From assembly GCA_026770705.1 (NCBI GenBank), contig JANJGN010000002.1, positions 38,936,001-39,000,000 on the forward strand: 64,000 nucleotides of DNA. Direction: 5' to 3'. Below the pieces are notes generated by a model. That model worked only from the letters and a program-made list of their open reading frames with translations, was not told the origin of the DNA and ran no database searches. The position numbers and the translations under genes were made by a program. Positions 830-61,009 of the stretch are shown here, piece by piece (positions within the stretch are counted from its first letter, which is position 1; each line of letters starts with the position of its first letter). The stretch is from Isurus oxyrinchus (lineage: Eukaryota).

Positions 830-2615
830 AGGGGGTTTGCTCACAGATGAACGTAACCAGCTCACAGGGCTTTTGGTCAAGTATCACTTTCCCTGATATG
901 ACTGAGGAGAGCTGCATGAAGAGGCTGCACTACACCATGCAGACTGTCACTGAGCTATGCAGCCTCCTGCCACAGGACCTGCCGTTTTCAGGCCCAGGTG
1001 ACTGACTATGCTGCACGTGGATGTCAAAGTCACCACATCGCTTAATCTTTTTGCCTCATGCTCCTTACTGTTTATTATAGGTGTCTTCACCCATGTCACT
1101 CTGTCTGCAATGTACATCTCCATAAAACAAGGCACTAATGCTCTATTTGTAGAGGAAACCAATACATCCTCTTTTATGTGGACACCAACAAATAAATTGA
1201 GAAAGCTATAAGATGGCTGACTCCTCGTATCTAGAGTATTGTAGACTTGTCATGACAGAGGATCACAGCCCGACTTACTTACGAGCTTATTGAATTTTTT
1301 AAGGAAGGCGTGTTTTTTAAAGAGGACATACAAGCAAAAGCTAGCTGAGAATGGAAAGTAACCACTTTCTGGAAAACTCCAACGTGGATTATACTTGACC
1401 AACTAGTCGAGTGAAAATGGAATGTCACACCTATAAAGGTATCAAAGGCTACTTCAGACAGAGACACTTGAAAGGAAAAATGCAACGCAAAAGACTGAAC
1501 TTTAATCTTCTGTGGTTGCCGAGACAATGGAGTCTGATTACTGTATCTCAGCAGAAACCATCTCCTTGTTGAGTTACATCTCAGAATATGGAAATGGTTT
1601 GAGTTGAAAGAAAGCAGATTGTGGGTGAAAGACATGTTTGTTTTTCCCTTCTAGGAATACACAAGAAAAAGGGTTAAAAAGCCAGCTGCAAACCTGATCG
1701 GTGTGTTCTAGTTCTGGTGTGCTAGTGTGTGCTGGGAATGTCACAGCAGAACAACATCAATGAGGCATCCCTGCAACTTGTAGATAAAAGTCTTTTCTCT
1801 CCCTCTGTAGCTGGAGGCACGTCAGCAAAGCCACATCGAAGAAGGAAATATCTCAACTCCTGCTGCTACCCTGCAGTACCAAGTGTCTCCAAACCAACTG
1901 CTCAACTGCCAAAATCAGCTCTACTGGAATCACCCAGCTTAAAAGCTGCAATGTTACACCATCTACTCCTAAAAGACAAGCCAAAGACTGATTCGTATAT
2001 CTTTTAAAACTTTTCTTTGGACTCAACTTTTCATTGCTGATCTGTGTGTATGCATGTTGTGTTTTTGTTATTTCTCCTTGGGTTTTTAGTAACTAATAAA
2101 CTCACTCTTTCTTTGGCACAAGACAGCCTGGTTAAATTGGTTCCTTCTAAAACATAAATACATTTGGACTGGGAAAAGGTATCCACAAGGGAAGCGATCC
2201 TTTTTAAATTAACCTTGTTGCGACCAACCGAGGGGGTTGAATTAAGTAGGGGAGCCAGCTGATTCCTCCTTATCCGGGAGCATAACAAAATTGGGGTCCC
2301 ACTCGGGAAGTTAATAATTTGGGTATCTTGTCTAGGATCATAACAAATTGGGGGACCTCAACAGCCAGAAGGGCTATTACTTAGTGTTTTACCACTGGGA
2401 AAAATAATGCATGTTTGTGCCAGTTTTGTGGGCAGCTCTCACAATACCTTCATTGTGTTGTTGAACATAAGAAAATTTCAGAGCCTCAATAGATCTTTGT
2501 AGTTCCCTACAATATGCCCCGCACAATGTATATTACACAACGTAGTGATATGGAGAGGGTTGCAGTTGAAGGGGGCAGAACAAGAGGAAGAGTCATCAAC
2601 TACTGAGGAAGCCTT
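830..2615 (+). pseudogene. Decayed PIF/Harbinger (HARBI1-like) transposase, interrupted by an LTR (1248-2360) and, at its acidic C-terminus, by the Penelope insertion
   Basis: Residual peptides LHVDVKVTTSLNLFASCS (~1011), IKQGTNALF, VCASFVGSSHNTFIV (~2412), LQYAP and LHNV resemble Harbinger DDE nuclease motifs; the acidic tail continues after 4445. Confidence 0.6.
1248..2287 (+). mobile_element. LTR (~1.04 kb) of an LTR retroelement, followed by tRNA-Pro-like PBS repeats
   Basis: Starts TGTCATG, ends CATAACA, AATAAA at ~2095; followed by TGGGG.. PBS-like sequence; 3' part similar to solo LTR 20934-22021. Confidence 0.65.
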
Positions 2616-2682
2616 AACAAAAACAAGAACAGAATTACCTGGAAAAACTCAGCAGGTCTGGCAGCATCGGCAGAGAAGAAAA

Positions 2683-2723
2683 GAGTTGACGTTTCGAGTC
2701 CTCATGACCCTTCGACAGAACTC
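2683..2723 (-). ncRNA. Minimal type I hammerhead ribozyme motif in PLE terminal repeat
   Basis: Reverse complement GAGUU CUGUCGA A GGGUC-AUGAG-GACUC GAAAC GUC AACUC: 5-bp stem I, 5-bp stem II, palindromic ACGU stem III, GUC triplet. Confidence 0.75.
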
Positions 2724-4286
2724 GAGTTCGAGTCCAAGAAAGAGTTGAAATATAAGCTGGTTTAAGGTGTGTGTGTGTGGGGGGGGGGGGGGGGGGGTGG
2801 GGGCGGAGAGAGAGAGAGAGAGGTTGGGGGGGGGTTGGGGGGTGGGGGGTTGGGGGTGTGGTTGTATGGACAAACAAGCAGTGATAGAAGCAGATCATCA
2901 AAATATGTCAGCGACAATGGTACGATAGAACACATAGGTGTTAAAGTTAAAGTTGGTGATATTATCTAAACAAATGTGCTAATTAAGAATGGATGGTAGG
3001 GCACTCAAGGTATAGCTCTAGTGGGGATGGGGACAGTATAAAAGATTAAAAAATTTTTTTTTAAAAAATAATGGAAATAGGTGGGAAAAGGAAAATTTAT
3101 TGGAAAAAAAAGGAAGGGGGAAACAGAAAGGGGGTGGGGATGGGGGAGGGAGCTCACGACCTAAAGTTGTTGAATTCAATATTCAGTCTGGAAGGCTGTA
3201 AAGTGCCTAGTCGGAAGATGAGATGTTGTTCCTCCAGTTTGCGTTGGGTTCACTGGAACAATGCAGCAAGCCAAGGACAGACATGTGGGCAAGGGAGCAG
3301 GGTGGAGTGTTAAAATGGCAAGCGACAGGGAGGTTTGGGTCATTCTTGCGGACAGACCGCAGGTGTTCTGCAAAGCAGTCACCCAGTTTACGTTTGGTCT
3401 CTCCAATGTAGAGGAGACCACATTGGGAGCAACGAATGCAGTAGACTAAGTTGGGGGAAATGCAAGTGAAATGCTGCTTCACTTGAAAGGAGTGTTTGGG
3501 TCCTTGGACGGTGAGGAGAGAGGAAGTGAAGGGGCAGGTGTTGCATCTTTTGCGTGGGCATGGGGTGGTGCCATAGGAGGGGGTTGAGGAGTAGGGGGTG
3601 ATGGAGGAGTGGACCAGGGTGTCCTCTACATTGGAGAGACCAAACGTAAACTGGGCGACCGCTTTGCAGAACACCTGCGGTCTGTCCGCAAGAATGACCC
3701 AAACCTCCCTGTCGCTTGCCATTTTAACACTCCACCCTGCTCCCTTGCCCACATGTCTGTCCTTGGCTTGCTGCATTGTTCCAGTGAAGCCCAACGCAAA
3801 CTGGAGGAACAACATCTCATCTTCCGACTAGGCACTTTACAGCCTTCCGGACTGAATATTGAATTCAACAACTTTAGGTCGTGAGCTCCCTCCCCCATCC
3901 CCACCCCCTTTCTGTTTCCCCCTTCCTTTTTTTTCCAATAAGTTATAAAGATTTTCCTTTTCCCACCTATTTCCATTATTTTAAAAAAAAATTTAATCTT
4001 TTATGCTCTCCCCACCCCCCACTAGAGCTATACCTTGAGTGCCCTACCATCCATTCTTAATTAGCACATTTGTTTAGATAATATCACCAACTTTAACTTT
4101 AACACCTATGTGTTCTTTTGTACTATTGTTGTTGACGTCTTTTGATGATCTGCTTCTATCACTGCTTGTTTGTCCCTACAACCACACCCCCACTACACTT
4201 CTCTCTCTCTCTCTCTCTCTCTCCATCCCCCACACACACACACCTTAAACCAGCTTATATTTCCACTCTTTCTTGGACTCGAACTC

Positions 4287-4327
4287 AAGTTCTGTCGAAG
4301 GGTCATGAGGACTCGAAACGTCAACTC
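4287..4327 (+). ncRNA. Minimal type I hammerhead ribozyme motif in PLE terminal repeat
   Basis: AAGTT CTGTCGA A GGGTC ATGAG GACTC GAAAC GTC AACTC; predicted cleavage after 4322. Confidence 0.75.
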
Positions 4328-4999
4328 TTTTCTTCTCCGCCGATGCTGCCAGACCTGCTGAGTTTTTCCAGGTAATTCTGTTTTTGTTTTTGTTTTGGAT
4401 TTCCAGCATCCGCAGTTTTTTTGTTTTTATCACTGAGGAAGCCTTGGCTGACAGTGAGGGAGAAGTAAAAGAATCAAAATGCATTGCAGCCAAGCAGATC
4501 AGGGATCAGTGGATGGAGCTTCCAGTCACCTGTTCATTCTTGTCTCCTGAAAAGACACGCAAGATCCCTCTGTATTAACAGTCGTCGTTTCCTCATTAAT
4601 CTTGAATTAAGGAGCATTGAAGCCATGCAGTCAATTTTTTATAAACGGTGAACAACGCAGACTCAGAAGCTGCACTGGAAAGCCTCTGCAAATCAAAGTG
4701 CCAGACGTGGGTGAGCCGATTTCAGAAGATGAGCGGTGCCTTGAAAGTTCCAATCTATTGAAGATTCCAGTCTCCCCAAGCCAGAGCCTAAAGTCTAGAA
4801 GTCAGCCATCTATTGCTATTGTAAGATTCTGGCTACAGCATTGCCTGAGCTGGCCTCTTGCTCCATGCTAGAGCAAGGAGTGGTATTGCCATATGGGATG
4901 ATATCACACAAGCTGGAGATGGACTCCTCAGCAATTTGAGCCATGCTGCTGAAAATCCTCGACGTCAAATGCATTGCATAACTATTTGTGTGGTACCTG

Positions 5000-5620: not shown

Positions 5621-7217
5621 AGTGCAATTTCCCTTTAGGAGATACGTTCCCACTTTAAACCTGGAGCCTTGCCGGAAATTGCGCTCTGAAAATGGGCAGG
5701 CTTCCTCTTCCTGATGCGAACGGGTGGTAAACCTGCCAGACAAATTGAAATAAGCTCTGGTAGTTAAAATATCTCAAATCTGAAATTTTGGCCAGGTAGA
5801 GTGTCTTGGTCTTCGTCTGTCTGAAACCTGCTCTGGATTAAAATGACCACATCAGATAAGATTTAGCATTTTTTTTAAGCTTGGATCTAATTTTGAATTT
5901 GACAAAGCTAAAACAGGAGGGGATAAGCCAAGCTTTAAAATTGGAAGCATGATTCCACCTTGTTTAATAATGTAAAATAAAAAAAACAAGCCAATAAAAT
6001 CACAGTCCCCTTCATCATCTTGCTTTCATCCTGTTCTTTTTTCATCAAATGACCGACACGTTTGCAGATTGATTATAATACGAGCTGTAAAAGTTTAGCT
6101 TTTCTGAAAGCATGCTGTGCGAAAGAATCAATTCCCACCACTGGAGATCTGCCTCCCCTTTCCAGGACAAAAGATAAAGTATGAAGTTAAACGGGTGTTA
6201 AAATGCGCATTGATAAGCAGGAGTGCTCTGTGTGAGGAGGCTCTGCAGGGACAGGGGAGTGACAGGGGTGCTGTGGGGGTAGTTGGGTGTTTGGGGGTGT
6301 TGCTTTTGGCAGCACTGATGTGAACCTGCACTTTTACTGGCGGCCAAATTAGCTACAGTTGCACAAGTTCAGACTGCTTCACAGAGGGAAAAACCAAACT
6401 CCATTCACAAACCACTAATTAAAAAACTTTCACTGCTGCTTCATCACTGCAACAAAGGTTATGGTGGTTTCTGAAGAAATTTCCCTATTCATTGGTCTAC
6501 CCTACACACAGTCACACAAACAAAAAAGACATAAAATTCCCATGCTACCTATTTTCAAGTGACTCTACAAGTGTTTTTCACAATGAAAGCAACAATTTCC
6601 ATGGCCGTCTCAGCAACGACTAGCTTCAAAAATGAATTGCAGTGAGATTATTGGTCATGACAGGTGAATAAATCCCACCACCTCCTTCACAACTTAGCTG
6701 CTAAATACTTTGTTTCAGTGTCTTAGAAATGATTTCTTGAAAGAAGTGAATGGATTTTACACTTTTTATGTTTTGTTGTGATGCAAATGATAAGTTGGAC
6801 CAGAGGGACCTGCAGTTTTAGAAAAGTAATCTGTAGTTTACAACATTTCAATCTGTCAGGTCTGGGCATGTGGTGGTGGGGGAGTGGGCGGTGGAGGGGT
6901 TTGCGGTGGGGGTTGTGGGGGAGGGGGTGCAGAGGTTATAGAAAAGTTCTGAATGTAGCCTTTACATTGGTGGACACAACAGGGAAAGGCAGACCCACTA
7001 AATACCAATGAAACTCACTAAACATTAAGGAGCCTTACCAACCAGCAGGAAAACTCATCAGGCAAGATCATGAAACATCAATCAGACTCATCGTACATCT
7101 GGACAACCCACTTAGCATCAGGAGACTAGCCAAACATGAGGACAACTCACCATATACAACTGAGTAGGAAGAATCTTAATATCTAGTTTGGACCAGGATA
7201 AGCAATAGGAGATTACA

Positions 7218-7421
7218 ACAGAGATAAAAACAAAAAAACTGCGGATGCTGGAAATCCAAAACAAAAACAAAAACAGAATTACCTGGAAAAACTCAGCAGG
7301 TCTGGCAGCATCGGTGGAGAAGAAAAGAGTTGACGTTTTGAGTCCTCATGACCCTTCGACAGAACAGAACAGCTGTCGAAGGGTCATGAGGACTCGAAAC
7401 GTCAACTCTTTTCTTCTCCAT
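7218..7421. mobile_element. Miniature PLE hairpin insertion (terminal repeat plus inverted hammerhead copy only)
   Basis: Complete PLE 3' end on minus strand; 48-bp arms 7315-7362 and 7373-7420 with a 10-nt loop; TSD TAGGAGATTACA at 7206-7217 and 7422-7433. Confidence 0.9.
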
Positions 7422-7669
7422 TAGGAGATTACATCCAGCTAGGGATAAGTAAATAGTGCACCACATTTGATATCTCCTTAGCAACTAAGACAATGGAGAT
7501 GTTAATGTAAAGTAAGAAGTAAGACAGAGAAAAGGAGAAACTTTTCCTTATAAATGTCTGTGTGACTGTGGAATGTATACTATTGAAGTTAGCGATTGAA
7601 GCAGAAATCATGCCAATTCTTAATAGGTTGGAGAGGTGGGTAAAGAAAAGGAAAAAAAGAGAACTATCA

Positions 7670-8169: not shown

Positions 8170-8534
8170 CTTAATATACCCATCATCTATGATATACATT
8201 CACTCACTCACTTTTCCAGAACCACTTTATCCAATTCAGGGTTGCGTGTCTATGACATACAATTACTTAATCCATCCAAATCTTCAACAGAAATATCTGA
8301 TTGAACCAGAAGATAGTTTACAGCAGCACTCTTTCATGATGTAATTAGGCATTGAAAAGCCCTTTTTTAAAAGGATGATTTTAACACCATCTCCCAGTAT
8401 AGTCGATTAATCAACTAAAGAACTGTGCCACACAGTGGCGGGTGTTGGTTCTTACTCTTTGGTCCCGAAATGATAAGTTGTCTTCATCAGTTTGTCAAGG
8501 AAAGGTAGCAAGCTGAGTATTACAATATCACAGT

Positions 8535-8985
8535 ATCTTTACAGTGCAGTTGGAGGCCATTCTCCCCATCGAGTCTGCACTGGCTCTCTGAAAGAGCATT
8601 CCACCTAATCCCAGTCCCCTGCCTTATCCCCGTAATCTTGCACATTCTTTCCTTTCAGGTAACAATCCAATTCCCTTTTGAATACCTCAATTGAACCTGC
8701 TTTCACCACCCTTTCAGGAAGTTTGTTCCAGAGCCCAGCCACCCTCTGGGTGAAAATCTTTTTCCTCACGTCACATTTACTCCTTTTGTCAATTATTTTG
8801 AATCTGTGCCCTCTAGTTCTTGATGTTCTTTTGAGTGGGAATAGTTTCTTACTGTTTACTTTGTCCATACCCCTCAGGATCTTGAATACCTCTATAAAGT
8901 ATCCTCTCAGCCTTCTGTTCTCCAAGGAAAAGAGTCCTAACCTCTCCAGTCTATCCTCATAGCTATAGTTCTTTATCCCTGGACC
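8535..8985 (-). mobile_element. CR1 LINE 3' fragment
   Basis: ORF 8605-8925 RRLRGYFIEVFKILRG..TRGH..FTQRVAGLWNKLP, typical CR1 ORF2 C-terminus. Confidence 0.85.
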
Positions 8986-12807: not shown

Positions 12808-13489
12808 AGGCAGAATTTTCCCGTCGGTGATTTGGGGGCGGGGTCCGCTCGCCAACGGGAAAATGACATGGGATGATGTCAGAAGAAACCCCCGACATCA
12901 TCCCGGTCCATTTAAATATTGAGGAAGGCAGCGGACAGTGAAATCAGCTGTCCGCCCGCCGACCTGTCAATGGCCGATTAAGGCCATTGACAGGATAATT
13001 AAGTTTATTAAATGCCCTGCCCGTCCAACCTTAAGGGTGGCAGGCAGGCCAGGAGCCCCAGCGGGCTTCTGATAATACATGAAACTTCACCCACTAGCGG
13101 GATGAGGTTTCATGTCCGTTTTTAAAAGCTTCAATAAAGTTTATGTGCTTCTTATTAACAGGTTCCATCTCGTGTGACATTGTCACATGAGATGGGACAT
13201 GTTAATAATTTTAATATTTTTCTAAATTCAAAGATTTTTATACTGTCAGTAATCTCCCTGAGACAGCACTTAGTCTCAGGGAGATGTGCGCTCTTTCGCA
13301 GATGGGGAATCCCTCCACTCCACGCACAGGAAGTGCATAATTCTTCCTATTGGGTAGGCCGCTGGGCGGGCCTTAATTGGCCCGCCCACTCAAAATGGCG
13401 GTGGACCCCGTTTCAGCGGCGGAGTTCAGCTGCCCGCCTGCCGCCGAGTCAGTGGGGCCCGCCCGCCCATTAAGATAAAAATTATGGTC
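12808..13489 (+). mobile_element. MITE, Harbinger-like non-autonomous DNA transposon
   Basis: Imperfect TIRs GGCAGAATTTT..AAAATTATGGTC; near full-length inverted homolog at 61282-61944; internal hairpins. Confidence 0.75.
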
Positions 13490-14090: not shown

Positions 14091-16514
14091 CCTCCATCCT
14101 TGAGTTATAACAAACGCATATGTTATCTTAGGTATATAAAATATGTCATCAGATAGAAAAGCACTGAGACAAGAGAAACTGAGGCTCTTTTCATTGGAAT
14201 AAAGGTCAAGAAAACCTTTCTTTTCGGTGTAAGGGGAGGGGGGCTTTGATAAGGCACATAGGAAAAATGATTTCCACTAGTTGCTGAGTCTGTAATGAGA
14301 GGGCATAAATTTAACGAGAATGAAGGAAGAAGTTAGGAGTTTTTTTTTACACAGTGGCTTGTTAGGATATTATTCTCCTATCAGAAGCAATACTGGAAGA
14401 AGGGTCCATAATAGGTTTTAAAGGGAAGTAGATATAGAGTTGAAAAGTAAATAAATAAGAGTAAGGATGAAGTGTGGAGGAGTAGGACTAAATAGGCAGC
14501 TTTTTCAGAGAATTGGCATAAGTACAATGGACTAAATGGCTTCTTCTTTGCTGTCCAAATTTATGAATATAAATAAAGAGGTCAGTGTGAATTTCTGGAT
14601 TTCAATCTAGAACCTCATACAAGAATTACGAAAGAATTTACATTTATTTACGAAATAAGGACATATGCTTTGCAGCCGTTAGATAATCACTTCTCAAAGA
14701 TGATGGCAGAATAAAATGCAAGTTTGCTCAATTTGCCTTTCAGCTTACCTTTAAGAAGTTGTAGAGGTGTGACTTTTTTTTGCAAGGATTTTATGAAGCT
14801 GAATTAAACTTTTCAAAGATTGGATGTTACAAGTGGCCGCGTTGTCAGCCGCTCTCCTGCATTTTACTGAATGTCCCCAACTTGGTATTCAAGTTGATTT
14901 TCATGCAGAGATGCTATCCCCATAGTAACAACTTGGACTCTTCTAAGATGTTACTATAATCACGCACTTCTCCTACCTGCACTGCAGGACACAGAGCCTT
15001 TACATATTGATTCTGCAACTCAACTCCTTCTCATATACAATTTCTGAAATAACTAGTTGTGTAAAATACTCTGAAATGCATCAAACCAAAAGAATATAAA
15101 CAAAAGTGCTATTGCAATAGTATTATTCCCATGAGCTTTTGCAGCTGATTCCTTTTACAAGTGCATACGCGTTTCTAACAAAATAATCTTGCACTTGTCA
15201 GTGAGTTCCCATGCTATGATTAATATTGGTCCAAATCTTTGTATACAAGAGTAAGCTACTGCCAAAACACTTGCCTTTAATAACCAGTGCAGCACAGTAC
15301 AGTAAGTATCAAAAATCAAATGAAACTCTATTAGACGGTTAACAGTTACAAACCTCTTGCAGCGCAAAAGGGTTTCAGATCAGATCAAATTTTGAAGCCT
15401 GTAAGTAAAGAAAGAAAAATAAAAGCTCCTTCCAAGTGAAACATCTTGCTGTGAAGGGAACATCTTTCTGTTCCTGGGAAGGTTTTGCATTGGGGTCAGT
15501 TTATGGAGCAGTCACTCCAAAGAAAGCTTCATTTCACAGTTGCCATGGGTCACCAAAAATTGCTGTGATGTTTTTCATGGATATCTTTGTGTTTATTTTT
15601 TAAAAACGAAGACTTAAGAACAGGTTGATTTAATTTCTGAGTAGATCAATAATGGAATGATCTCACTGCATTATCTGTCTCTGTATTGAGCATCATTGTT
15701 CACAAACTCAGGAAAGGACGCAAAAGTATTTTACACATGATGATACTCCCTATTTTTCTCCAATTAATTTCTTTTTTCTCTCTTGACAGTGAGGAAGTTT
15801 GGCTTACTAAATGCCAGCAGTCTTCTTGGCACCTTGTCCAATCATTTTTGTCTTGTCAATCTACAGAGTAAGACTATTTAACTAGTTAACTATTTAACTG
15901 GCCTCACTCTGCATCCATATTTGTAAATTTTTCAGCATGAGTCACTAGACAGATGTTATGCCTGGAATCCATGGCCAGTTTTGCAATCCTCACTATCTTA
16001 GACATGCTGGTCCAATGCGAGTCACATTATTGTTGACAGAGCTGATCAATTACCCAGTGCAAATCAGGATTGAAACTGCAACATTTCTGGCCTGACTGGA
16101 TAAGGACCACACTGTTTAGCTACTGAACCATTATATTGTTCGTTAAGTAGTCCCAGGTCCTTTCTCCCTAAGGCAACATGGTGGAAAAGAGAATGAGCAG
16201 ACTGAAGATCCTATTCTGCCCCACTCCATGGCACCACATGTTGGAGACCCAATGTACTGCTGCACCATAATGATAGTACGTATTGGATAAATTACACCAA
16301 TAAATGAATGGAAAAGCAGTGAGATGCTGAAGGGTACAGACAACCTAGGTTAAACATTCCCATTGCACCAGATTCATGTGGGACATAAACACTGCCACAG
16401 ATGAACTAGAATTATAATAAAAACAAAGAAAACTGCGGATGCTGGAAATCCAAAACAAAAACAGAATTACCTGGAAAAACTCAGCAGGTCTGGCAGCATC
16501 GGCGGAGAAGAAAA

Positions 16515-16555
16515 GAGTTGACGTTTCGAGTCCTCGTGACCCTTCGACAGAACTT
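16515..16555 (-). ncRNA. Minimal hammerhead ribozyme motif (PLE #2 left arm)
   Basis: Reverse complement AAGTT CTGTCGA A GGGTC ACGAG GACTC GAAAC GTC AACTC. Confidence 0.75.
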
Positions 16556-16943
16556 GATTTCGAGTCCAAGAAGGAGTTGAAATATAAGCTGGTTTAAGGT
16601 GTGTGTGTGGGGGGGCGGAGAGATAGAGAGAGAGAGAGAGGTGCTTGTGTAGACAAACAAGCAGTGATAGAAGCAGATCATCAAAAGATGTCAGCGACAA
16701 TGGTACAAAAGAACACATAGGTATTAAAGTTAAAGTTGGTGATATTATCTAAACGAATGTGCTAATTAAGAATGGATGGTAGGGCACTCAAGGTACAGCT
16801 CTAGTGGGGGTGGGGGAGCATAAAAGATTTTAAAATATTTAAAAATAATGGAAATAGGTGGGAAAAGAAAAATCTATAAAATTTACAGGGAAAAAAAAGG
16901 AAAAAGGGGGAAACAGAAATGGGGTGGGGATGGGGGAGGGAGC

Positions 16944-18308
16944 TCATGATCTAAAGTTGTTGAATTCAATATTCAGACCGGAAGGCTGTAAGGTGCCTAG
17001 TCGGAAGATGAGGTGCTGTTCCTCCAGTTTGCGTTGGGCTGCACTGGAACAATGCAGCAAGCCAAGGACAGACATGTGGGCAAGAGAGCAGGGTGGAGTG
17101 TTAAAATGGCAAGCGACAGGGAGGTTTGGGTCATTCTTGCGGACAGACCGCAGGTGTTCTGCAAAGCGGTCGCCCAGTTTACGTTTGGTCTCTCCAATGT
17201 AGAGGAGACCACATTGGGAGCAACGAATGCAGTAGACTAAGTTGGGGGAAATGCAAGTGAAATGCTGCTTCACTTGAAAGGAGTGTTTGGGTCCTTGGAC
17301 GGTGAGGAGAGAGGAAGTGAAGGGGCAGGTGTTACATCTTTTGCGTGGGCATGGGGTGGTGCCATAGGAGGGGGTTGAGGAGTAGGGGGTGATGGAGGAG
17401 TGGACCAGGGTGTCCCGGAGGGAGCGATCCCTACGGAATGCCAATAAGGGGGGTGAAGGGAAGATGTGTTTGGTGGTGGCATCATGCTGGAGTTGGCGGA
17501 AATGGCGGAGGATGATCCTTTGAATGCGGAGGCTGGTGGGGTGATAAGTGAGGACAAGGGGGACCCTATCATGTTTCTGGGAGGGAGGAGAAGGCGTGAG
17601 GGTGGATGCGCGGGAGATGGGCCGGACACGGTTGAGGGCCCTGTCAACGACCGTCGGTGGAAAACCTCGGTTAAGGAAGAAGGAGGACATGTCAGAGGAA
17701 CCGTTTTTGAAGGTAGCATCATCGGAACAGATGCGACGAAGGCGAAGGAACTGGGAGAATGGGATGGAGTCCTTACAGGAAGCGGGGTGTGAGGAGCTGT
17801 AGTCGAGGTAGCTGTGGGAGTCGGTGGGTTTGTAATGGATATTGGTGGACAGTCTATCACCAGAGATTGAGACAGAGAGGTCAAGGAAGGGAAGGGAAGT
17901 GTCAGAGATGGACCACGTGAAAATGATGGAGGGGTGGAGATTGGAAGCAAAATTAATAAATTTTTCCAAGTCCCGACGAGAGCATGAAGCGGCACCGAAG
18001 TAATCATCGATGTATCGGAGAAAAAGTTGTGGAAGGGGGCCGGAGTAGGACTGCAACAAGGAATGTTCCACATACCCCATAAAGAGACAGGCATAGCTGG
18101 GGCCCATGCGGGTACCCATAGCCACACCTTTTATTTGGAGAAAGTGAGAGGAGTTGAAGGAGAAATTGTTCAACGTGAGAACAAGTTCAGCCAGACGGAG
18201 GAGAGTAGTGGTGGATGGGGATTGTTCGGGCCTCTGTTCGAGGAAGAAGCTAAGGGCCCTCAGACCATCCTGGTGGGGGATGGAGGTGTAGAGAGATTGG
18301 ACGTCCAT
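16944..18308 (-). CDS. 5'-truncated PLE polyprotein: reverse transcriptase plus GIY-YIG endonuclease (454 aa open)
   Basis: RT motifs DVQSLYTSI, GVAMG, RYIDD, FLD, YKPT; C/H Zn-binding linker; VYC..LYIGET..R..EH..E..GLN. Confidence 0.9.
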   Translation of the reverse strand: MDVQSLYTSIPHQDGLRALSFFLEQRPEQSPSTTTLLRLAELVLTLNNFSFNSSHFLQIKGVAMGTRMGPSYACLFMGYVEHSLLQSYSGPLPQLFLRYIDDYFGAASCSRRDLEKFINFASNLHPSIIFTWSISDTSLPFLDLSVSISGDRLSTNIHYKPTDSHSYLDYSSSHPASCKDSIPFSQFLRLRRICSDDATFKNGSSDMSSFFLNRGFPPTVVDRALNRVRPISRASTLTPSPPSQKHDRVPLVLTYHPTSLRIQRIILRHFRQLQHDATTKHIFPSPPLLAFRRDRSLRDTLVHSSITPYSSTPSYGTTPCPRKRCNTCPFTSSLLTVQGPKHSFQVKQHFTCISPNLVYCIRCSQCGLLYIGETKRKLGDRFAEHLRSVRKNDPNLPVACHFNTPPCSLAHMSVLGLLHCSSAAQRKLEEQHLIFRLGTLQPSGLNIEFNNFRS

Positions 18309-18349
18309 GGTGAAGAGGAAGCGGTTGGAGCCAGGGAACTGGCTATGGT

Positions 18350-19531
18350 GTGGCTATGGGTACCCGCATGGGCCCCAGCTATGCCTGTCTCTTTATGGGG
18401 TATGTGGAACATTCCTTGTTGCAGTCCTACTCCGGCCCCCTTCCACAACTTTTTCTCCGGTACATCGATGATTACTTCGGTGCCGCTTCATGCTCTCGTC
18501 GGGACTTGGAAAAATTTATTAATTTTGCTTCCAATCTCCACCCCTCCATCATTTTCACGTGGTCCATCTCTGACACTTCCCTTCCCTTCCTTGACCTCTC
18601 TGTCTCAATCTCTGGTGATAGACTGTCCACCAATATCCATTACAAACCCACCGACTCCCACAGCTACCTCGACTACAGCTCCTCACACCCCGCTTCCTGT
18701 AAGGACTCCATCCCATTCTCCCAGTTCCTTCGCCTTCGTCGCATCTGTTCCGATGATGCTACCTTCAAAAACGGTTACTCTGACATGTCCTCCTTCTTCC
18801 TTAACCGAGGTTTTCCACCCACGGTCATTGACAGGGCCCTCAACCGTGTCCGGCCCATCTCCCGCGCATCCGCCCTCACGCCTTCTCCTCCCTCCCAGAA
18901 ACATGATAGGGTCCCCATTGTCCTCACTTATCACCCCACCAGCCTCCGCATTCAAAGGATCATCCTCCGCCATTTCCGCCAACTCCAGCATGATGCCACC
19001 ACCAAACACATCTTCCCTTCACCCCCCTTATCGGCATTCCGTAGGGATCGCTCCCTCCGGGACACCCTGGTCCACTCCTCCATCACCCCCTACTCCTCAA
19101 CCCCCTCCTATGGCACCACCCCATGCCCACGCAAAAGATGTAACACCTGCCCCTTCACTTCCTCTCTCCTCACCGTCCAAGGGCCCAAACACTCCTTTCA
19201 AGTGAAGCAGCATTTCACTTGCATTTCCCCCAACTTAGTCTACTGCATTCGTTGCTCCCAATGTGGTCTCCTCTACATTGGAGAGACCAAACGTAAACTG
19301 GGCGACCGCTTTGCAGAACACCTGCGGTCTGTCCGCAAGAATGACCCAAACCTCCCTGTCGCTTGCCATTTTAACACTCCACCCTGCTCTCTTGCCCACA
19401 TGTCTGTCCTTGGCTTACTGCATTGTTCCAGTGAAGCCCAACGCAAACTGGAGGAACAACACCTCATCTTCCGACTAGGCACCTTACAGCCTTCCGGTCT
19501 GAATATTGAATTCAACAACTTTAGGTCGTGA
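18350..19531 (+). CDS. 5'-truncated PLE polyprotein (RT from motif B plus GIY-YIG, 393 aa open)
   Basis: Nearly identical to the minus-strand ORF from AMGTRMGPSYA onward. Confidence 0.9.
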   Translation: MAMGTRMGPSYACLFMGYVEHSLLQSYSGPLPQLFLRYIDDYFGAASCSRRDLEKFINFASNLHPSIIFTWSISDTSLPFLDLSVSISGDRLSTNIHYKPTDSHSYLDYSSSHPASCKDSIPFSQFLRLRRICSDDATFKNGYSDMSSFFLNRGFPPTVIDRALNRVRPISRASALTPSPPSQKHDRVPIVLTYHPTSLRIQRIILRHFRQLQHDATTKHIFPSPPLSAFRRDRSLRDTLVHSSITPYSSTPSYGTTPCPRKRCNTCPFTSSLLTVQGPKHSFQVKQHFTCISPNLVYCIRCSQCGLLYIGETKRKLGDRFAEHLRSVRKNDPNLPVACHFNTPPCSLAHMSVLGLLHCSSEAQRKLEEQHLIFRLGTLQPSGLNIEFNNFRS

Positions 19532-19921
19532 GCTCCCTCCCCCATCCCCACCCCCTTTCTGTTTCCCCCTTTTTCCCTTTTTTTTTCCCTATAAATTTTA
19601 TAGATTTTTCTTTTCCCACCTATTTCCATTATTTTTAAATATTTTAAAATCTTTTATGCTCCCCCCACCCCCACTAGAGCTGTACCTTGAGTGCCCTACC
19701 ATCCATTCTTAATTAGCACATTCGTTTAGATAATATCACCAACTTTAACTTTAATACCTATGTGTTCTTTTGTACCATTGTCGCTGACATCTTTTGATGA
19801 TCTGCTTCTATCACTGCTTGTTTGTCTACACAAGCACCTCTCTCTCTCTCTATCTCTCCGCCCCCCCCACACACACACCTTAAACCAGCTTATATTTCAA
19901 CTCTTTCTTGGACTCGAAATC

Positions 19922-19962
19922 AAGTTCTGTCGAAGGGTCATGAGGACTCGAAACGTCAACTC
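19922..19962 (+). ncRNA. Minimal hammerhead ribozyme motif (PLE #2 right arm)
   Basis: AAGTT CTGTCGA A GGGTC ATGAG GACTC GAAAC GTC AACTC. Confidence 0.75.
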
Positions 19963-20933
19963 TTTTCTTCTCCGCCGATGCTGCCAGACCTGCTGAGTTT
20001 TTCCAGGTAATTCTGTTTTTGTTTAGAATTATAATAACCCAGGCTTACTGCAGCTAACTCCAGGATTGTCTTGGAATTTCCTGGAATTGTCCTGGAAGTA
20101 AAGATAATTAATCTCCTGATTACTACTTCTAGTAATCCTGGGAAAGAATCATTGGGGCACTTTGAACGCTTTTATTTATTAGTCACTAAAATGTTGGTTG
20201 ATGGTTGGGATGGGGTGGGGTGGGGTGGGGCAGACTGATTCACAGTGAAGAACCATCCAGTGGGTTATGAGGAGCCACTTTCCACTGGTCATGGGAAGGA
20301 CTTGCGCTGTGAGGTTGATTGTTGTGGGAAAATGATGGCAGGATCGTGGGTGCCTTGGTTAGAAGTGGAATAGTCATGTGATGATAATTGAAGGAATACA
20401 TCTATCCAGGGCTGACAACCCTGTCTGGTTGCTGCTTCCTCTGCCCACCCTAAAGCTACACATGGATTCAAACTAACTTCCTTGTCTTTGCTCAATGTTC
20501 ACAAAAGTCCACTTTCCAACCAGGATTGTGGATAAGAATTCAAAGCCCTAACTTTAACAGGTGTCAGACAGGCAGGGGCTGACATGAATGAAAAACCATC
20601 CGATTCTTGCCACGTGAGACCTGGGAGATTTTATCATTGGGGCCTGACCTGCATGCGTTCCTATCAAGCCTCCAGCCCGAACTTCGTGAGAAGCACTAAC
20701 TGCCTAGTGGACACTAGTGGAACTCTGAGAGACAGGACACATGCTAGCCATATCCGAAAGGAGCAATTCCTGGCTGTTGCGTAATGGTTAGACAGAGAGT
20801 CAGGAGGGTCGCATGGTCAGTGGAATAGGAAAGGGAGTCCGGGCCTTTCTTGACCTCTTCTGTGTTAGCCTGGTGGGGAAGTCAAATGGTAGTAATCGGT
20901 CCCACTGATGACATTGGAGCCCAATCTGAATAT

Positions 20934-22416: not shown

Positions 22417-23754
22417 ACGTGGGCATCACCACATCCTGTTTACAGTTAGCCAAAATATGAAGGGGGAATACCTAGGGAAATACTTAATGGTCTCAATCGG
22501 TCTAATTTAACAAAATTTGCTGTGCTGTGTTAAATCCAAAAATAGAAGATTATGAGGGAACTGTCGGGTAAGTTGGAATGTACATCTCATAACCCTTTAT
22601 ATTGAAGATATAATGGTAAAATAATCTAGTTTGCCACTTCTCCACACTGACATGTCTTACTCTTTAAAATAGTTTGCATTTATTAAAGTGTGTGCAGTTT
22701 GGTCATGTCTTGGGAGCATCAGTTCCAGCACACATGCCAATCAAAGTGAAAGACATCAGGGTTGAGTTTCAATTTGCCATACCATCATAAAACTGATTGC
22801 AGATTGACGTCTATTGTACAGACCATCCAATTTGCATTTCCATTGATTCTCGTGGAATTGATAATTCAGGTGATTTCCATGAAGGATGGTCAAGAGTATT
22901 ATCAGATTAAGGCACGGGCAACAAGCAAAAAAATCTATCCCATCAAACTGATCAAATGTGAACACTGGTCACATTTAGCAACTACTGTTAGCAGCATATA
23001 TTCCTACTTCAGGAACAGCACAGGATACAAAGTAAACCTATTTTGCCCCTCTCCCTCATCATGACGCACTTTTTGGGAATGGGACTGCTGGTATGCAGGG
23101 TTCAACCAAAAATTCCAGTAGTGTCACTGTTTGCACAGAAGCAGCAAATAAATCTGCAAAAAAGTAAGTGCTCTATCCATATTAGGGGCTGTAAATTGGT
23201 CCAAAATAGCACTTAACCCAAGAAAAAAAGAAACAGTTCTGCCTTGGGAAGTTGCACAGCTGAAGCAAAAAAAAATCAGTTCATCACCTAGGCCAAACTA
23301 ACATAAACCCATCCTAATGAAGTGACAACACGGTTGCTTTGAAGTTCCACTGATTCTGTAAACGGGGTCCCAGTAATGCCATTTCTGGCATGAGGTGCCT
23401 GTTCCTGTTACCTAAATGATCCCACCCTCCCAGGAGAGAAAGGAAATCCCACCCGATTTCACTTCAGAAATTTTAACTCCTACTTAAACCCAACCTTCGA
23501 AGAGCTCACTATTGCATTCATGTAACATTCCCATCGAGTCACAATCCTACTGCTGCCAGTCTTGAATGCTTAATCGGTGCTTCAATATACAGGGGCTGAG
23601 ACAGTTCCAGCCACACTTATCTGTCTGGAGCTTCTTCAGAGATTGGTAACATTTTCAAAGACATGAAAAAGTAGTTTGGCTCAGCTTATTAAGGCAGTGA
23701 GTAACAGAGCTATACAGGAAAGTCTCAGGTTTGCTTCCCTACTTTAAGTTAGCT

Positions 23755-24398
23755 GAAATATAAAGAAAAAATGTTGGAACACTTCAGACAGCTTCTGTGG
23801 AAAGAGAAGCAGAGTTTTGGACTTGGACCTTCTGAACAGCAATAATGATTCTTGGATTGCCACTGTGCTCATAAATTCCCTTGACTCGACGCTGCTGTGC
23901 ATTTCTGCCAGAGACTTCCAATCCCAGCTTTCATGGAAATGCGCAGTGCAGTGTCCGTTGGGAAACTCTGTTGAAGCGGAGAAGAGTGGAGGGAAGAACA
24001 GGGCAAGCCCCCTTTTTATTTTAAAGGTATAACTTGAATGTTTATGAATAATCTAACATTTCCTGGGTAATTACCCAGGTAAGTACCGCAGAACTGTCCA
24101 AAGTCATCAACTCGAGCTCAGAGCCAGAGACGTTCATGGAGGGTCCTGGGGAGAAGGTGAGTTGCCCAGTGGAAGTTGAAATGTTCTGGGCAATTCCCAT
24201 ATAGGTTCGCCTGTCAAGACTTCCACAGGGTCCTGGCGGGCATCTTCAGTTGTACATTCAATCTCCGACGATCCGGAGACTGGAGGATTTGGCCTAATGT
24301 TTCGGGTTGACGACGGTTCTTCCTCATACTGCCTCACCTGCTAAATTTTCCAGCATTTTCCCTTTTAATTTCCAGCTTCTGCAGTAGTTTGCTTTCTG
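23755..24398. mobile_element. Old mini PLE terminal-repeat hairpin interrupted by a ~480-bp MITE-like insert (23817-24294), nested in a SINE
   Basis: Inverted PLE ends at 23755-23816 and 24334-24398; hammerhead remnant on minus strand 24295-24322; 18-bp palindrome CCTGGGTAATTACCCAGG in the insert. Confidence 0.55.
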
Positions 24399-24714
24399 AG
24401 TTGCTGATCTGCACACAGATAGGTTTGCTAGTGTCACCCCTCCTCCCAAAATAAGAAGGGAAAACTTTTCAGCAATTCCCAGGCCTGCATGTTATCCCGT
24501 AAGTCCTGTGGAAGTAGACATAGATTGGTGCCAGGTGAGGACAGGCTTGGACTCTTCTGTGATGCCAATCTGGACACAGTCACTAGAGGATCACTGGAAG
24601 AAATTCCCATTCACTGGATACGGCCCACATCTCCATATGCCAACATGAAGCTGAATCTTTGAGAAAGAAGGAGTGAAAATTAGTGAGAAGAAGGAGAATA
24701 AATGGAATCAGTGA

Positions 24715-25140: not shown

Positions 25141-25259
25141 CGAAATAATGTGTAAAGAATCAAACAGCAACACCCGCTGAATAAGACAAAACATTTTCCT
25201 TGCACTCCAGCAATTTGTCCTAGTTTAAGTCAATAGTAGCAAAACTGAGAATGTGAGGG

Positions 25260-27935
25260 AAAAACTCAGGAGGTCTGGCAGCATTGGCGGAGAAGAACAA
25301 AGTTGACGTTTCGAGTCCTCATGACCCTTCAATAGAACTAAGTAAAAATAGGAGAGGGGTGAAATATAAGCTGGTTTAAGGTGGGGGGAGAAGTGGGGGG
25401 GTGGTGGTTGTAGGGACAAGCAAGCAGTGATAGGAGCAGCTAACCAAAAGATGTCACAGACAAAAGAACAAAGAGGTGCTGAAGGTGGTAATATTATACA
25501 AAAGAATGAGCTAATTAAGAATGGCTAGCAGGATATACAAGGTACAGATTGCTCTAGTGGGGGTGGGGTGAAATAAGACTAAAAGGGCATAGAACGTATA
25601 GATTTAAAAATAATGGAAATAGGTGGGAAAAGAAAAATCTATATTGGAAAAAACAAAAGGGAGGGGAAAAAACGAAAAGGGGCTGGGGATGGAGGAGGGA
25701 GTTCAAGAGCCTACCTCTCCCTGGACCATGACCCCACCACTGAACATCAAGCCATTGTTTCCAGGACTGTTACTGACCTCATCTCCTCTGGAGATCTTCC
25801 TCCCACAGCTTCCAACCTGATAGTCTCCTAACCTCGGACGGCCCACTTCTACCTCCTACCCAAAATCCACAAACAGGACTGTCCCGGCAGGCCGATCGTG
25901 TCAGCCTGTTCAAACCCACAGAACTCATTTCTCATTATCTTGACTCCCTTCTCTCTCCCCTTGTCCAGTCCCTTCCCACCTACATCTGTGATTCCTCTGA
26001 CACCTTATGTCACATCAACAATTTCCAGTTCCCTGGCCCCAACCACCTCCTCTTCACCATGGACGTCCAATCCCTCTACACTTTCATCCCCCACCAGGAC
26101 GGTCTGAGGGCTCTCAGCTTCTTCCTCGAACAGAGGCCCGAACAATCCCCATCCACCACTACTCTCCTCTGTCTGGCTGAACTTGTTCTCACACTGAACA
26201 ATTTCTCCTTTAACTCCTCTCACTTCCTCCAAATAAAAGGTGTGGCTATGGGTACCCGCATGGGCCCCGGCTATGCCTGTCTCTTTCTGGGGTATATGGA
26301 ACATTCCTTGTTCCAGTCCTACTCCGGCCCCCTCCCACAACTCTTTCTCCGGTACATCGATGATTACTTCGGTGCTGCTTCATGCTCTCGTTGGGACCTG
26401 GAAAAATTTATTAATTTTGCTTCCAATCTCCACCCCTCCATCATTTTCACGTGGTCCACCTCTGACACTTCCCTTCCCTTCCTTGACCTCTCTGTCTCAA
26501 TTTCTGGTGATAGACTGTCCACCAAAATCCATTACAAGCCTACCGACTCCCACAGCTACCTCGAATACAGCTCCTCACAGCCGCTTCCTGTAAGGACTCC
26601 ATCCCATTCTCTCAGTTCCTTCGCCTCCGTCGCATCTGTTCTGATGATGCCACTTTCAAAAACAGTTCCTCTGACATGTCCTCCTTCTTCCTTAACCGAG
26701 ATTTTCCACCCACGGTCATTGACAGGGCCTTCAGCCATGTCCGGCCCATATCCCGCGCATCCGCCCTCACACCTTCTTCTCCCTCCCAGAAACATGACAG
26801 GGTCCCCCTTGTCCTCACTTATCACCCCATCAGCCTCCGCATTCAAAGGATCATCCTCCGCCATTTCCGCCAACTCCAGCATGATGCCACCACCAAACAT
26901 ATCTTCCCTTCACCACCCTCCCTCCCCCCAGCGGCATTCCGTAGGGATCATTCCCTCCATGACATCCTGGTCCACTCCTCCATCACCCCCTACTCCTCAA
27001 CCTCCACCTATGGCACCTCCCCATGCATACGCAAAATATGCAACACCTCACCCTTCACTTCCTCTCTCCTCACCGTCCAAGGGCCCAAACACTCCTTTCA
27101 AGTGAAGCAGCAATTCACTTGCATTTCCCCCAACTTAGTCTACTGCATTCGTTGCTGCCAATGCGGTCTCCTTTACATTGGAGAGACCAAACGCAAATAG
27201 GCAACCGCTTTGCAGAACATTTTCAGTTTGTCTGCAAGAATGACCCAGACCTCCCTGTCGCTTGCCATTTTAACACTCCACCCTGCTCTCTTACCCACAT
27301 GTCTGTCCTTGGTTGCTGCATTGTTCCAGTGAAGCTCAACGCAAACTGGAGGAATAGCACCTCATCTTCCAACTAGGCGCTTTACAGCCTTCCGGACTGA
27401 ATATTGAGTTCAACAACTTTAGATCTTGAACTCCCTCCTCCATCCCCATCCCCTTTCCGTTTCTTCCCCCTTCCTTTTGTTTTTTCCAATATAGATTTTC
27501 CTTTTCCCACCTATTTCCATTATTTTTAAATCTATATGTTTTATGCCCTTTTAGTCTTATTTCACCCCACCCCCACTAGAGCTATCTGTACCTTGTGTGT
27601 CCTGCCATCATTCTTAATTAACACTTTCTTTTAGATAATATCACCACCTTCAACACCTCTTTGTTCTTTTGTCTGTGACATCTTTTGGTTATCTGCTCCT
27701 ATCACTGCTTGCTTGTCCCTACAACCACACCCTCCCCCCCCCCCGCCCCCCCCACCTTAAACCAGCTTATATTTCACCCCTCTCCTATTTTTACTTAGTT
27801 TTGTTGAAGGGTCATGAAGACTCGAAACATCAACTTTGATCTTCTCCGCCGATGCTGCCAGACCTCCTGAGTTTTTCCAGGTATTTCTGCTTCTGTTTTG
27901 GATTTCCAGCATCCGCAGTTTTTTGTTTTTATCTA
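25260..27935. mobile_element. Penelope-like element, head-to-head inverted dimer #3 (minus arm 25260-25708, plus arm ~25710-27935), older subfamily
   Basis: Inverted terminal repeats with hammerhead remnants (25301-25339, 27797-27835); TSD TG(A/G)GAATGTGAGGG at 25246-25259 and 27936-27949. Confidence 0.93.
25711..27428 (+). pseudogene. Disrupted PLE RT/GIY-YIG ORF
   Basis: YLLPKIHK, GRPIVS, DVQSLY, GVAMG, RYIDD and LYIGET are spread over several frames with stops. Confidence 0.9.
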
Positions 27936-28679
27936 TGGGAATGTGAGGGCTTCAACTATTTGCACTAATGTCTTTTTATTGTCTCCTTTTTTTCAGCTTC
28001 TCTCTCCGTTTAAAGTGGACTTGAGGCAGGAGTCAGATTAAATTCAAAAGCTCACCTTGGACATTTGCTTCTGATAATTCTGAGGTAACAAAATTGCCAC
28101 ATTTACTGTCCAAAGCTGGTTTTGTTCTCTGCAGTTAAACTGTTGGCTGATTGGTTCTGTAAATGGCCTATGGGGTCACTCAAGCAGAGCAGCCCTGTTG
28201 ACAAACAAGCGCCTGTCTCCCTCCCCCATATGATTCCTATACATTACACCCTGTTGATTCAAAGAAAAGACAGAAGGAAACCGTGGAACACTGCATGAAA
28301 TTACCCTCAGATTGTTATACTACCCATCAGTTTTTATTGTCCCTTTCTTCTCCTTTGGAATGAATCCACAGTGGCTGGGGTTAAATAGTAATTCTTTGTC
28401 TGACAACAATGCCATAGAATGACAGGTTTGGTTAAATGATTTACCAGTGAGTGTTAGCCTTTCACTAAAATTCAGGCAAGAGAGAACAGGATGTGAAGAA
28501 GTGTAACAGATAGCCCGGGGAATGCCGCACATGAAGAGAATAACAAGAAAAAGCACCTAAATGTCCTGCTGGCTCAGTGTGTTTACACAGTGAGTGACTA
28601 AACTGTAATGGCTAGAAAGTTCCAAGGTATATGTCCCAGTCTGTATTGAAGCAGGCAATAGCAACCCATACAAGAGATT

Positions 28680-32004: not shown

Positions 32005-32897
32005 ACTTGGAAGCATTGTAAACTGTGAGGAGGACAGTGTAGAACTTTAAAGGGACATAGCCAAGTTGGTGAAGTGGGCAGATAGGTGGCAGATGACGTT
32101 CAACATGAGGCGTTCATTTTGGTAGGAAGGACATGGACAGACAGTATGAAATAAGGGGTACAACTCTAATGAGTGTGCAGGAGCAGAGAGGCCTGGGTGT
32201 ATATCTGCATAAGTCATTAAAGGTAGGACAGGTGGAGAGAACAGTTAAAAAAGCATACAGTATCCTAGGCTTTATTAATAGTGGCATAGAGGTACAAGAG
32301 CAAGAAGGTTATGTTGAACTTGTATAAGACACTAGTTAGACCTCAGCTGGAGTACTGTGTACAGTTCTGGGCACCACACTTTAGGAAGGATGAGAATGCA
32401 TTGGAGAGTGCAGAAGAGGTTTACAAAAGTGGTTCCAGGGATGAAAAACTTCAGTTATGAAAATAGATTGGAGAAGTTGGGACTATTCTGCTTGGAGAGG
32501 AGAAGGCGAAGAGGCAATTTGATAGACATGTTCAAAATCATGAGGGGGCTGGACAGAATAGATAGGGAGAAACTGTTCCTGCTCATAAAAGGATCGAGAA
32601 TGAGAGGGCACAGATTTAAAGTGATTTGCAAAAGAAACAAATGCAATGTGAGAAAAAACCTTTTCACACAGCAAGCAGTTTGTGTCTGGAATGCATTGCC
32701 TGGAAGTGTGGTGGAGACAGGTTCAATCGAGGCACTCAAGGGGGCATTAGGTGATTATTTAATTAGAGGCAATGTGCAGGGTTACGGGGAAAAGGTAGGA
32801 GAATGGCACTGAGTCATAATGCTCATTCGGAGAGTCGGAGCAGACACAATGGGCTGAATAACCTCCTTTTGCATCGTAATAATTCTGTGATTCTGTT
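32005..32897 (+). mobile_element. CR1 LINE 3' part
   Basis: LVRPQLEY, VQKRFT, LEKLGLFCLERRR.RGNLI, WNALP; tail ATTCTGTGATTCTG. Confidence 0.88.
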
Positions 32898-34295: not shown

Positions 34296-34936
34296 GCCGG
34301 CCACTCTAGGGCATTCACCCTAAAATACTTCAGGCCAGTGGCACGGGCTGGGAGCAAAAGTCATGGGGTGGGATGGGGGACTATAACGTTGGGTCAGATT
34401 CTGGATATGATGGATCCACACCCCATTTTGGACAAAGGAAGTGAAGGACATTTAATCTGCCCATTCCTAATCATCCAGGCCACATTTTAGGGAACATTCC
34501 TGGGCTACCCTGATAATTACAGCCAGCACATTACTGTTATATTCAGCGATGTCTCCCATTGTAGACCTACACTGAAGCCTACAATTCAGAAGCTAATCAG
34601 CAATTGATCCCAGAGGATCAAATGTCATTGGCATCCTTAACAGAAAAATGTCCCAACTTGTGTTCTGATCATTTGGAAAGACTGCTACTTGCATGCTAAA
34701 CAGCGTAAGCAGCATGCGATGGACAAAGCTAAGCGATCCCATAATCAATGGATTAGACCTAAACTCTGCAGTCCTGCCACATCCAGTCACAAATGGTGGT
34801 GGTCAATTATGCAACTAACAGGAGGCTGAGGATCCACAAATATCCTCATCACATCAATACAAAAGACAAGGTGGAAGCATTTGCAACCGTTTTCAGCCAG
34901 AAGTGATGAGTGGATGATCCAGCTCAGCCTTCAGGT

Positions 34937-61005: not shown

Positions 61006-61009
61006 GGTC

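Follow-up and report, generated by a model that had tools for sequence, protein, structure and literature searches.

Head-to-head insertions of a Penelope-like element flanked by target-site duplications near 14 bp in the shark Isurus oxyrinchus

Arrangement of the young insertions

We analysed a 64-kb window (the whole stretch from position 38,936,001 to 39,000,000 of contig JANJGN010000002.1, assembly GCA_026770705.1) of the genome of Isurus oxyrinchus, in which a young Penelope-like element (PLE) family fills about 13% of the sequence. All results refer to this one window and to four well-preserved insertion events (n = 4), designated I1–I4 (Table 1). The window is repeat-rich eukaryotic DNA with a GC content of 0.44 and carries reverse transcriptase (RT) and endonuclease (EN) fragments of long interspersed elements (LINEs). 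The insertions were confirmed by self-BLAST of the window together with junction analysis. In each of I1–I4, a minus-strand arm precedes a plus-strand arm and the 3′ ends point outward, the arms being 5′-truncated copies of a Neptune-type PLE in head-to-head orientation. A preliminary description of this DNA had reported two 5′-truncated copies joined 5′-to-5′ in each insertion, and our analysis agrees with it. No partial-tandem copy (direct pseudo-long terminal repeat, pLTR) or full-length copy was found within the window.

Direct repeats interpreted as target-site duplications (TSDs) flanked all four insertions. Their length was 14 bp in I1 and I3, 14 bp with one mismatch in I4, and 12–15 bp in the mini insertion I2, in line with the 14 bp noted earlier. 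When compared with 4000 random 21-mers, each flank pair was better than random (p = 0.0002–0.0012). With 0–4 nt of microhomology allowed at the outer junctions, a stagger of 14 nt was the sole value compatible with all four sites, and this value is pinned by I1. The earlier idea of a fixed stagger of ~14 nt thus fits every site, but the sites are four, and L1 TSDs also peak at 14–16 bp (PMC2912911). No target-site motif shared by the four reconstructed empty sites was seen by eye.

A tail of ~37 nt was present at exactly one end of each young insertion (4/4), and the other end fell short by ~37 (I1), 92 (I2), 37 (I3), and 55 nt (I4), which bears out the description of one complete and one shortened 3′ end. 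The unpaired spacers between the stems were ~208 (I1), 7–10 (I2), 218 (I3), and 1715 bp (I4). Consequently, the term palindrome, applied initially to all four, suits only I2, which is near-perfect and forms a hairpin with a 47-bp stem and a ~10-nt loop (−64.9 kcal/mol as DNA, z = −15); I1, I3, and I4 are spaced inverted repeats. Every insertion had also been proposed as a potential source of long dsRNA or of a cruciform. For dsRNA, such an outcome is already known from Drosophila Penelope (PMC3681739). As to cruciforms, I2 alone is a plausible source, whereas spacers of 200–1700 bp make cruciforms implausible for the others.

Table 1. Coordinates of the PLE insertions and associated features in the window
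Feature	Position	Strand	Remarks
I1, whole insertion	2616–4431
I1 left TSD	2602–2615		14 bp, exact match to 4432–4445 (14/14)
I1 left arm	2616–3624	−	tail-less; ~205 nt further 5′ than right arm
I1 right arm	3622–4431	+	tailed; 3-nt microhomology with left arm at 3622–3624
I1 right TSD	4432–4445
I2 (mini), whole insertion	7218–7421
I2 left TSD	7203–7217		12 bp exact (7206–7217 / 7422–7433); 14–15 bp with one mismatch
I2 left arm	7218–7365	−	tailed
I2 junction	7366–7372		7-nt insert repeating left-arm end
I2 right arm	7373–7420	+	3′ end ~92 nt short; 47-bp hairpin with left arm
I2 right TSD	7419–7433		overlaps arm end by 1–2 nt microhomology
I3, whole insertion	16421–20023
I3 left TSD	16407–16420		14 bp, exact match to 20024–20037 (14/14)
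I3 left arm	16421–18342	−	5′-truncated PLE copy, tailed 3′ end
Open frame in I3 left arm	~16947–18341	−	RT-thumb-Zn-linker-GIY-YIG
Mirror copy of hammerhead-like motif	~16517–16553	−
I3 central junction	18343–18346		4-nt insert duplicating adjoining right-arm sequence, templated-insertion-like
I3 right arm	18347–20023	+	5′-truncated, without ~37-nt tail; open frame to 19531
Minimal hammerhead-like motif in I3 pLTR	19924–19960	+	core box CUGUCGA; pattern search
I3 right TSD	20024–20037
I4, whole insertion	25260–27935
I4 left TSD	25246–25259		14 bp, 13/14 against right TSD (one mismatch)
I4 left arm	25260–25708	−	3′ end ~55 nt short
I4 right arm	25710–27935	+	tailed; oldest of the young copies and also the longest; ORF remnant with frameshift
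I4 right TSD	27936–27949
I7, older head-to-head pair	23753–24395		minus end 23753–23837 tail-less, plus end 24305–24395 tailed
I7 direct repeat	23743–23756 / 24394–24407		degenerate, ~14 bp, p ~0.02
I5, older head-to-head mini pair	44235–44423		minus end tailed, plus end tail-less
I6, older head-to-head pair	45903–46790		arms separated by ~710 bp of unrelated GC-rich sequence
Older solo end	61009–61121	−	tail-less; canonical hammerhead core

Identity of the element

The left arm of I3 carries an open reading frame (ORF) of 469 aa with matches to RVT_1 (E = 9.4e-07) and GIY-YIG (E = 4.6e-04) that narrowly miss the curated cut-offs of Pfam. The frame aligned over ~99% to the C-terminal half of homologues of 820–955 aa with 51–54% identity. 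The best named protein relatives were elasmobranch: Rhincodon (68%), Hypanus (66%), Mobula (65%), Stegostoma (63%), and Chiloscyllium (61%); unnamed matches and those from invertebrates mostly showed 46–55% identity. Judged by these relatives, the host would be a cartilaginous fish. The ORF has a CCHH motif whose two Cys are located between GIY and YIG (VYCIRCSQCGLLYIG...H...H), and its residues C375, C378, H397, and H413 are conserved in alignment A2. Between RT and EN, the ORF has a Zn-finger-like linker C-x4-C-x2-C (CPRKRCNTC), whose C332, C337, and C340 are nearly invariant in the same alignment. A linker-type pattern was present in the last 250 aa of 60/60 tested homologues, where the cysteines of the CCHH motif may also satisfy it. 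These features and the homologues agree with the PLE identity assigned in the preliminary description; judged from its sequence, the element is an EN+ PLE with RT and, C-terminally, GIY-YIG in one ORF.

According to PMC8557442, the linker C-x2-5-C-xx-C is confined to Neptune and Nematis, and its presence therefore excludes the Penelope/Poseidon clade. Neptune is preferred over Nematis by inference from the vertebrate distribution (bioRxiv 10.64898/2026.07.22.740005). This is probably an undescribed Neptune-type family of elasmobranchs; among the papers listed by our shark-related literature searches, none dealt with it. The AlphaFold2 model of the ORF (pLDDT 87.7) had an RT-like fold. In Foldseek, the best TM-scores belonged to telomerases (highest TMq among the matches listed, 0.41), which is not discriminating, and telomerases, retron RTs, group II RTs, and RNA-dependent RNA polymerases appeared at similar E-values. 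Neither the ORF nor alignment A2 matched anything when searched by sequence against PDB. Full-length homologues contain a DKG motif upstream of the RT core, and every copy in the window is truncated downstream of it; since all are 5′-truncated, none is autonomous.

Two entries from rays named as host kinase-domain (P0121) and chitinase-domain (P0129) isoforms consist largely of the protein of this PLE (65–66% identity) and are probably annotation artefacts or exonised copies.

pLTR, tail, and hammerhead-like motif

A minimal hammerhead-like motif of the type known from PLE pLTRs (PMC4209133) was recognised by its architecture (5-bp stem II, an extra base after position 9, GAAA, and palindromic ACGU). 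The search gave 8 pattern matches, all inside PLE ends. The core box CUGUCGA, with U at position 6, was present in all six arms of I1–I3 (19927, 16550, 4292, 2718, 7362, and 7373). In I4 the core is further altered, and the canonical CUGAAGA (A6) was found only in the old solo end, at 61112. By these sequences, the family appears to have stayed active with a variant hammerhead core. An Rfam search of 19700–20100 gave no match. On folding of the 3′ ends as RNA, a GAUGCUG/CAGCAUC stem appeared in 4/5 pieces; none was more stable than shuffled sequences (z from −1.2 to +1.2), so we make no claim on RNA structure.

In I4 (~27852–27935, plus strand), a 27-codon frame running through the tail begins with an ATG that lies 54 nt into the pLTR motif. 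The equivalent frame is stopped by TAA at codon 11 in all five I1–I3 arms that reach this point. The same spot resembles a 5′ splice donor, and a length change in a nearby 6-nt repeat keeps the frame. A tail-encoded N-terminus of the ORF was considered and rejected, as there was no similarity to 89 homologue N-termini (216/300 shuffles were equally good).

Older copies

A first profile, built on four young ends, recovered six older PLE ends (E from 3.7e-18 to 1.9e-3), and a seventh was spotted by eye. A second profile was seeded with 11 regions and gave 19 matches, with partly circular E-values. The 15 matches at E ≤1.5e-8 were kept, and the 4 weak ones (E 1.4–3.1) were dropped; the control on the reversed window gave 2 matches (E 2.9 and 4.1). 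The 15 strong pLTR ends alternate minus-plus, forming 7 pairs and one solo end (14/15 in (−,+) pairs). Head-to-head layout was thus found at 7/8 PLE loci, i.e., the four young insertions and three older pairs (I5–I7). This supports head-to-head integration as the normal product within the window, but its presentation as a novelty was overstated in view of PMC3846280, PMC8557442, and PMC2377424.

Tail asymmetry is clear in two older pairs (I5 and I7) and is probably the same in the third, with a tail deletion. Besides the degenerate repeat of I7, a possible decayed 13-bp repeat at I5 (p ~0.2) and a possible decayed flanking repeat at I6 (p 0.07–0.12) were not significant.

The interior of I7 is unlike the young element. 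A long palindrome in it was rejected (score 35 vs. a shuffle maximum of 41); a short palindrome (24059–24082) lies almost exactly at the midpoint. The GC-rich interior of I6 (46020–46731, ~710 bp) has short inverted ends and no second copy in the window; it is possibly a nested non-autonomous DNA transposon.

Integration mechanism

Divergence between the two arms of one insertion was 1.0% in I3 (17 substitutions), 3.4% in I1, 6.9% in I4, and 1/48 in I2. Among 731 columns of the I1 and I3 arms, 18 sites joined the two arms of I1 against the two arms of I3, and 1 site supported another pairing. The I4 arms shared a state against I1/I3 at 60/409 columns. Such shared variants indicate that the two arms of one insertion stem from one source lineage. 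Two independent insertions at one site, a post-insertion rearrangement, or an assembly fold-back would account for paired arms in other ways. PLEs are said to insert into or beside existing copies (PMC6765202), and the enzyme of Anolis carolinensis Poseidon (PAc) cuts its own pLTR region (PMC11167929), but a single TSD encloses each pair, the arms cluster by insertion, and 7/7 pairs have the same orientation. As had been anticipated, a fold-back artefact is unlikely because the arms are not identical (1.0–6.9% difference, 1/48 in I2) and all four insertions carry TSDs. We regard this group of explanations as very improbable.

The usual product is probably formed by double target-primed reverse transcription, in which both nicked strands prime and two cDNAs are end-joined. 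The sequence evidence for it consists of the head-to-head arms, the TSDs compatible with 14 nt, one tail per insertion, the shared lineage of the arms, and the end-joining marks at the centre. By the logic of target-primed reverse transcription (TPRT), a direct TSD implies two 3′-OH ends, whose extension on sense RNA would give a minus arm and then a plus arm. This geometry is the same as in L1 dual priming (PMC2837659) and supports double priming. The GIY-YIG nuclease would nick both strands early, ~14 nt apart, leaving two 3′ overhangs, and each 3′-OH would prime RT near the 3′ pLTR of the RNA, one at a distal start site (tail kept) and the other at or upstream of a proximal site (tail lost). 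Both cDNAs would abort early, producing the 5′ truncation; microhomology-mediated or templated end joining would connect their 3′ ends, and the TSD would arise from fill-in of the overhangs. The two priming events may be coupled, either by a second reading of one RNA under strand displacement or by an asymmetric two-RNA complex, two versions that fit the present data equally.

The tail-less ends of I1 and I3 coincide, both being 37 nt short, and the tail-less ends of the old I7 and of the old solo end stop close to the same point. Such coincident stops fit an RT start site better than random termination. If the two ends were independent, one tail per insertion in 4/4 young loci would have a probability of ≤1/16, or ≤1/64 with the two clear old pairs added; hence the ends look coupled, and the asymmetry of one tailed and one tail-less end favours coupled priming.

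One-sided tails are also accounted for by a model published for head-to-head PLEs (PMC3846280), in which an antisense template self-primes and the resulting hairpin is resolved by the endonuclease and then integrated, as for rotifer PLEs; the tail has been explained as a product of EN resolution (PMC8557442). The mini insertion has a short palindrome at its junction, as this model would have it. At the junctions of I1, I3, and I4, however, inspection revealed no palindrome, just microhomology or small inserts, and sense-RNA priming, on both DNA strands and at two sites that bracket the tail, has meanwhile been demonstrated in vitro (PMC11167929). We consider self-priming on antisense templates improbable here.

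The three resolved central junctions consist of a 3-nt microhomology in I1 and of inserts copying neighbouring sequence in I3 (4 nt) and I2 (7 nt). Microhomology and small templated inserts are typical of microhomology-mediated end joining.

The arms overlap by 47–1670 bp within insertions, and their relative extent bears on a further alternative, a single TPRT event followed by snap-back. The 3′ end of the target-primed cDNA would fold by microhomology, extend on itself, stop before the tail, and be captured by the other target end. Identical arms, one tail, a shorter nested arm, and central microhomology are expected from it, and this is true of I2, I3, and I4; the short ends of I2 and I4 are variable, with 1–2 nt of microhomology. 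In I1, by contrast, the arm without a tail is the longer one toward 5′ while its partner is tailed, so that neither is contained in the other and neither was copied from the other; snap-back would need a later deletion of at least 205 nt. It also leaves the exact coincidence of two young tail-less ends, at the type of site where RT starts in vitro (PMC11167929), unaccounted for, and offers no reason for the narrow TSD length. Snap-back is therefore unlikely as the general route, though less so than the self-priming of antisense templates.

Several points weigh against double priming. The 14-nt stagger rests on n = 4, and the exact TSD of the mini is 12 bp. In 3/4 young insertions (I2, I3, and I4), the tailed arm contains the tail-less one, as snap-back predicts, and the exception, I1, might stem from a later central deletion. 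In I2 and I4, the tail-less ends stop elsewhere, with 1–2 nt of TSD microhomology, and end capture fits equally well. The variants shared by the arms could go back to a single active source locus or to gene conversion after insertion, rather than to one RNA. TSDs of the older loci are weak (p 0.02, 0.2, and 0.1; combined 0.01–0.02, with boundaries set by eye), and the solo end has no partner; a search over 2.4 kb also gave no TSD counterpart for it. Finally, the in vitro support comes from a Poseidon-clade enzyme rather than from that of the shark element.

Tentatively, coupled double priming could be the normal mode of the shark Neptune element in a stricter form, with a two-nuclease complex, a staggered break of constant 14 nt, and a single RNA reverse-transcribed from each of its two start sites; we hold this full version to be doubtful. 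If it were true, every insertion would start out as an inverted repeat whose arms are identical, and insertions could be dated by arm divergence (1.0%, 3.4%, and 6.9% here), like a clock of LTR type. It would mean a retrotransposon using as a rule the dual priming postulated for L1, and would explain the puzzle of inverted pLTRs and one-sided tails in PLEs.

Comparison with known systems

The layout itself is already known: inverted 5′-truncated copies, a one-sided tail of 30–40 nt, TSDs, and siRNA derived from inverted Penelope copies have all been published, and the first reading as a new integration mode was too strong. Head-to-head is the most frequent PLE arrangement in PMC3846280, with TSDs of 8, 9, and 10 bp and some copies without TSD, and a typical Penelope is described there as an insert that has an inverted pLTR, a 31-bp tail on one side only, and 8–10-bp TSDs. 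An inverted 5′-truncated copy with a one-sided tail is also described in PMC8557442 and bioRxiv 10.1101/2021.04.23.441226; the latter calls TSD length variable and the mechanism of tandem and inverted formation undefined. PMC2377424 and PMC8969392 agree with the inverted layout.

With Neptune-clade EN+ PLEs, the shark element shares the single ORF with RT and C-terminal GIY-YIG, the CCHH motif, and the linker C-x4-C-x2-C (PMC8557442, PMC3846280, PMC4209133), as well as strong 5′ truncation, an inverted 5′-truncated copy at the 5′ end, a one-sided 30–40-nt tail, and a hammerhead-like pLTR motif. It differs by the lack of partial-tandem or full-length copies in the window, by the U6 hammerhead core in I1–I3, and by TSDs that are close to 14 bp throughout the four young copies, where Adineta has 8–10 bp and the Craig preprint speaks of 'variable' length.

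For PAc, both strands were cut and extended in vitro, and RT had two start sites, which bracket the tail (Frangieh et al., 2024, PMC11167929). The minimal hammerhead architecture is the same, and the coincident tail-less stops of I1 and I3 match the tail-bracketing start sites. PAc belongs, however, to the Penelope/Poseidon clade and lacks the linker Zn finger. It prefers ATT/AT-rich targets and its start falls in an AC-rich stem-loop, whereas the start sites of the shark element would fall in U-rich tracts, with no clear motif common to its four targets. The available text of PMC11167929 does not tie the result to inverted genomic copies or TSD length.

L1 twin or dual priming resembles the proposed route in that both nicked strands prime, an inversion lies inside ~14–16-bp TSDs, and joining occurs by microhomology or non-homologous end joining; it is a minority route, with normally non-overlapping inverted parts and an APE-type nuclease (PMC2837659, PMC2912911). 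Dual priming of L1 is merely postulated (PMC2837659). In the shark PLE, overlap between the arms reaches 1.67 kb, and the inverted form is the majority product. Classical L1 twin priming, with non-overlapping inverted fragments of one RNA, was therefore rejected, and the route would work like dual priming.

In Drosophila virilis, the inverted terminal repeats of the commonest Penelope form are large and vary in size, and a terminal repeat of 34–37 bp is also present (PMC2377424); inverted Penelope regions yield siRNA (PMC3681739). Unlike here, the inverted repeat flanks a partial tandem whose ORF is intact. In the literature searched, which did not cover key subscription papers, we found no paper applying double priming to inverted PLE copies or reporting a fixed TSD.

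The layout will not surprise a PLE specialist, and the residual value is mechanistic. New in this window are the narrow stagger compatible with 14 nt, the diagnostic bases shared by arms, one non-nested pair, and the central end-joining marks. In a vertebrate family that is young and abundant and has clean TSDs, counts of TSD length, arm nesting, tail asymmetry, and junction type can separate the rival models. By analogy with lizard Penelope, which is heavily edited (PMC5625713), the inverted repeats may be major substrates for double-stranded RNA formation and editing. Such repeats also trouble assemblies.

Other features of the window

A Pfam scan of 103/110 other ORFs of at least 80 aa (the remainder was largely covered by another Pfam scan) gave LINE fragments and two weak sub-cut-off matches only; accordingly, no host gene was recognised in these ORFs. 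LINE-type fragments (RVT_1, endonuclease) of at least two families were located at 53091–54443, 32336–32900, 8518–8983, 57312–59954, and 34685–36734. An ORF remnant at 55565–56017 (plus strand) without a Pfam match ends in an aspartic-protease-like motif, which we take to resemble that of Gypsy-type LTR retrotransposons. A further family of dispersed repeats, with several short hairpins in its interior, occurs at 12811–13442, 40132–40524, 48600–48839, and 61304–62249.

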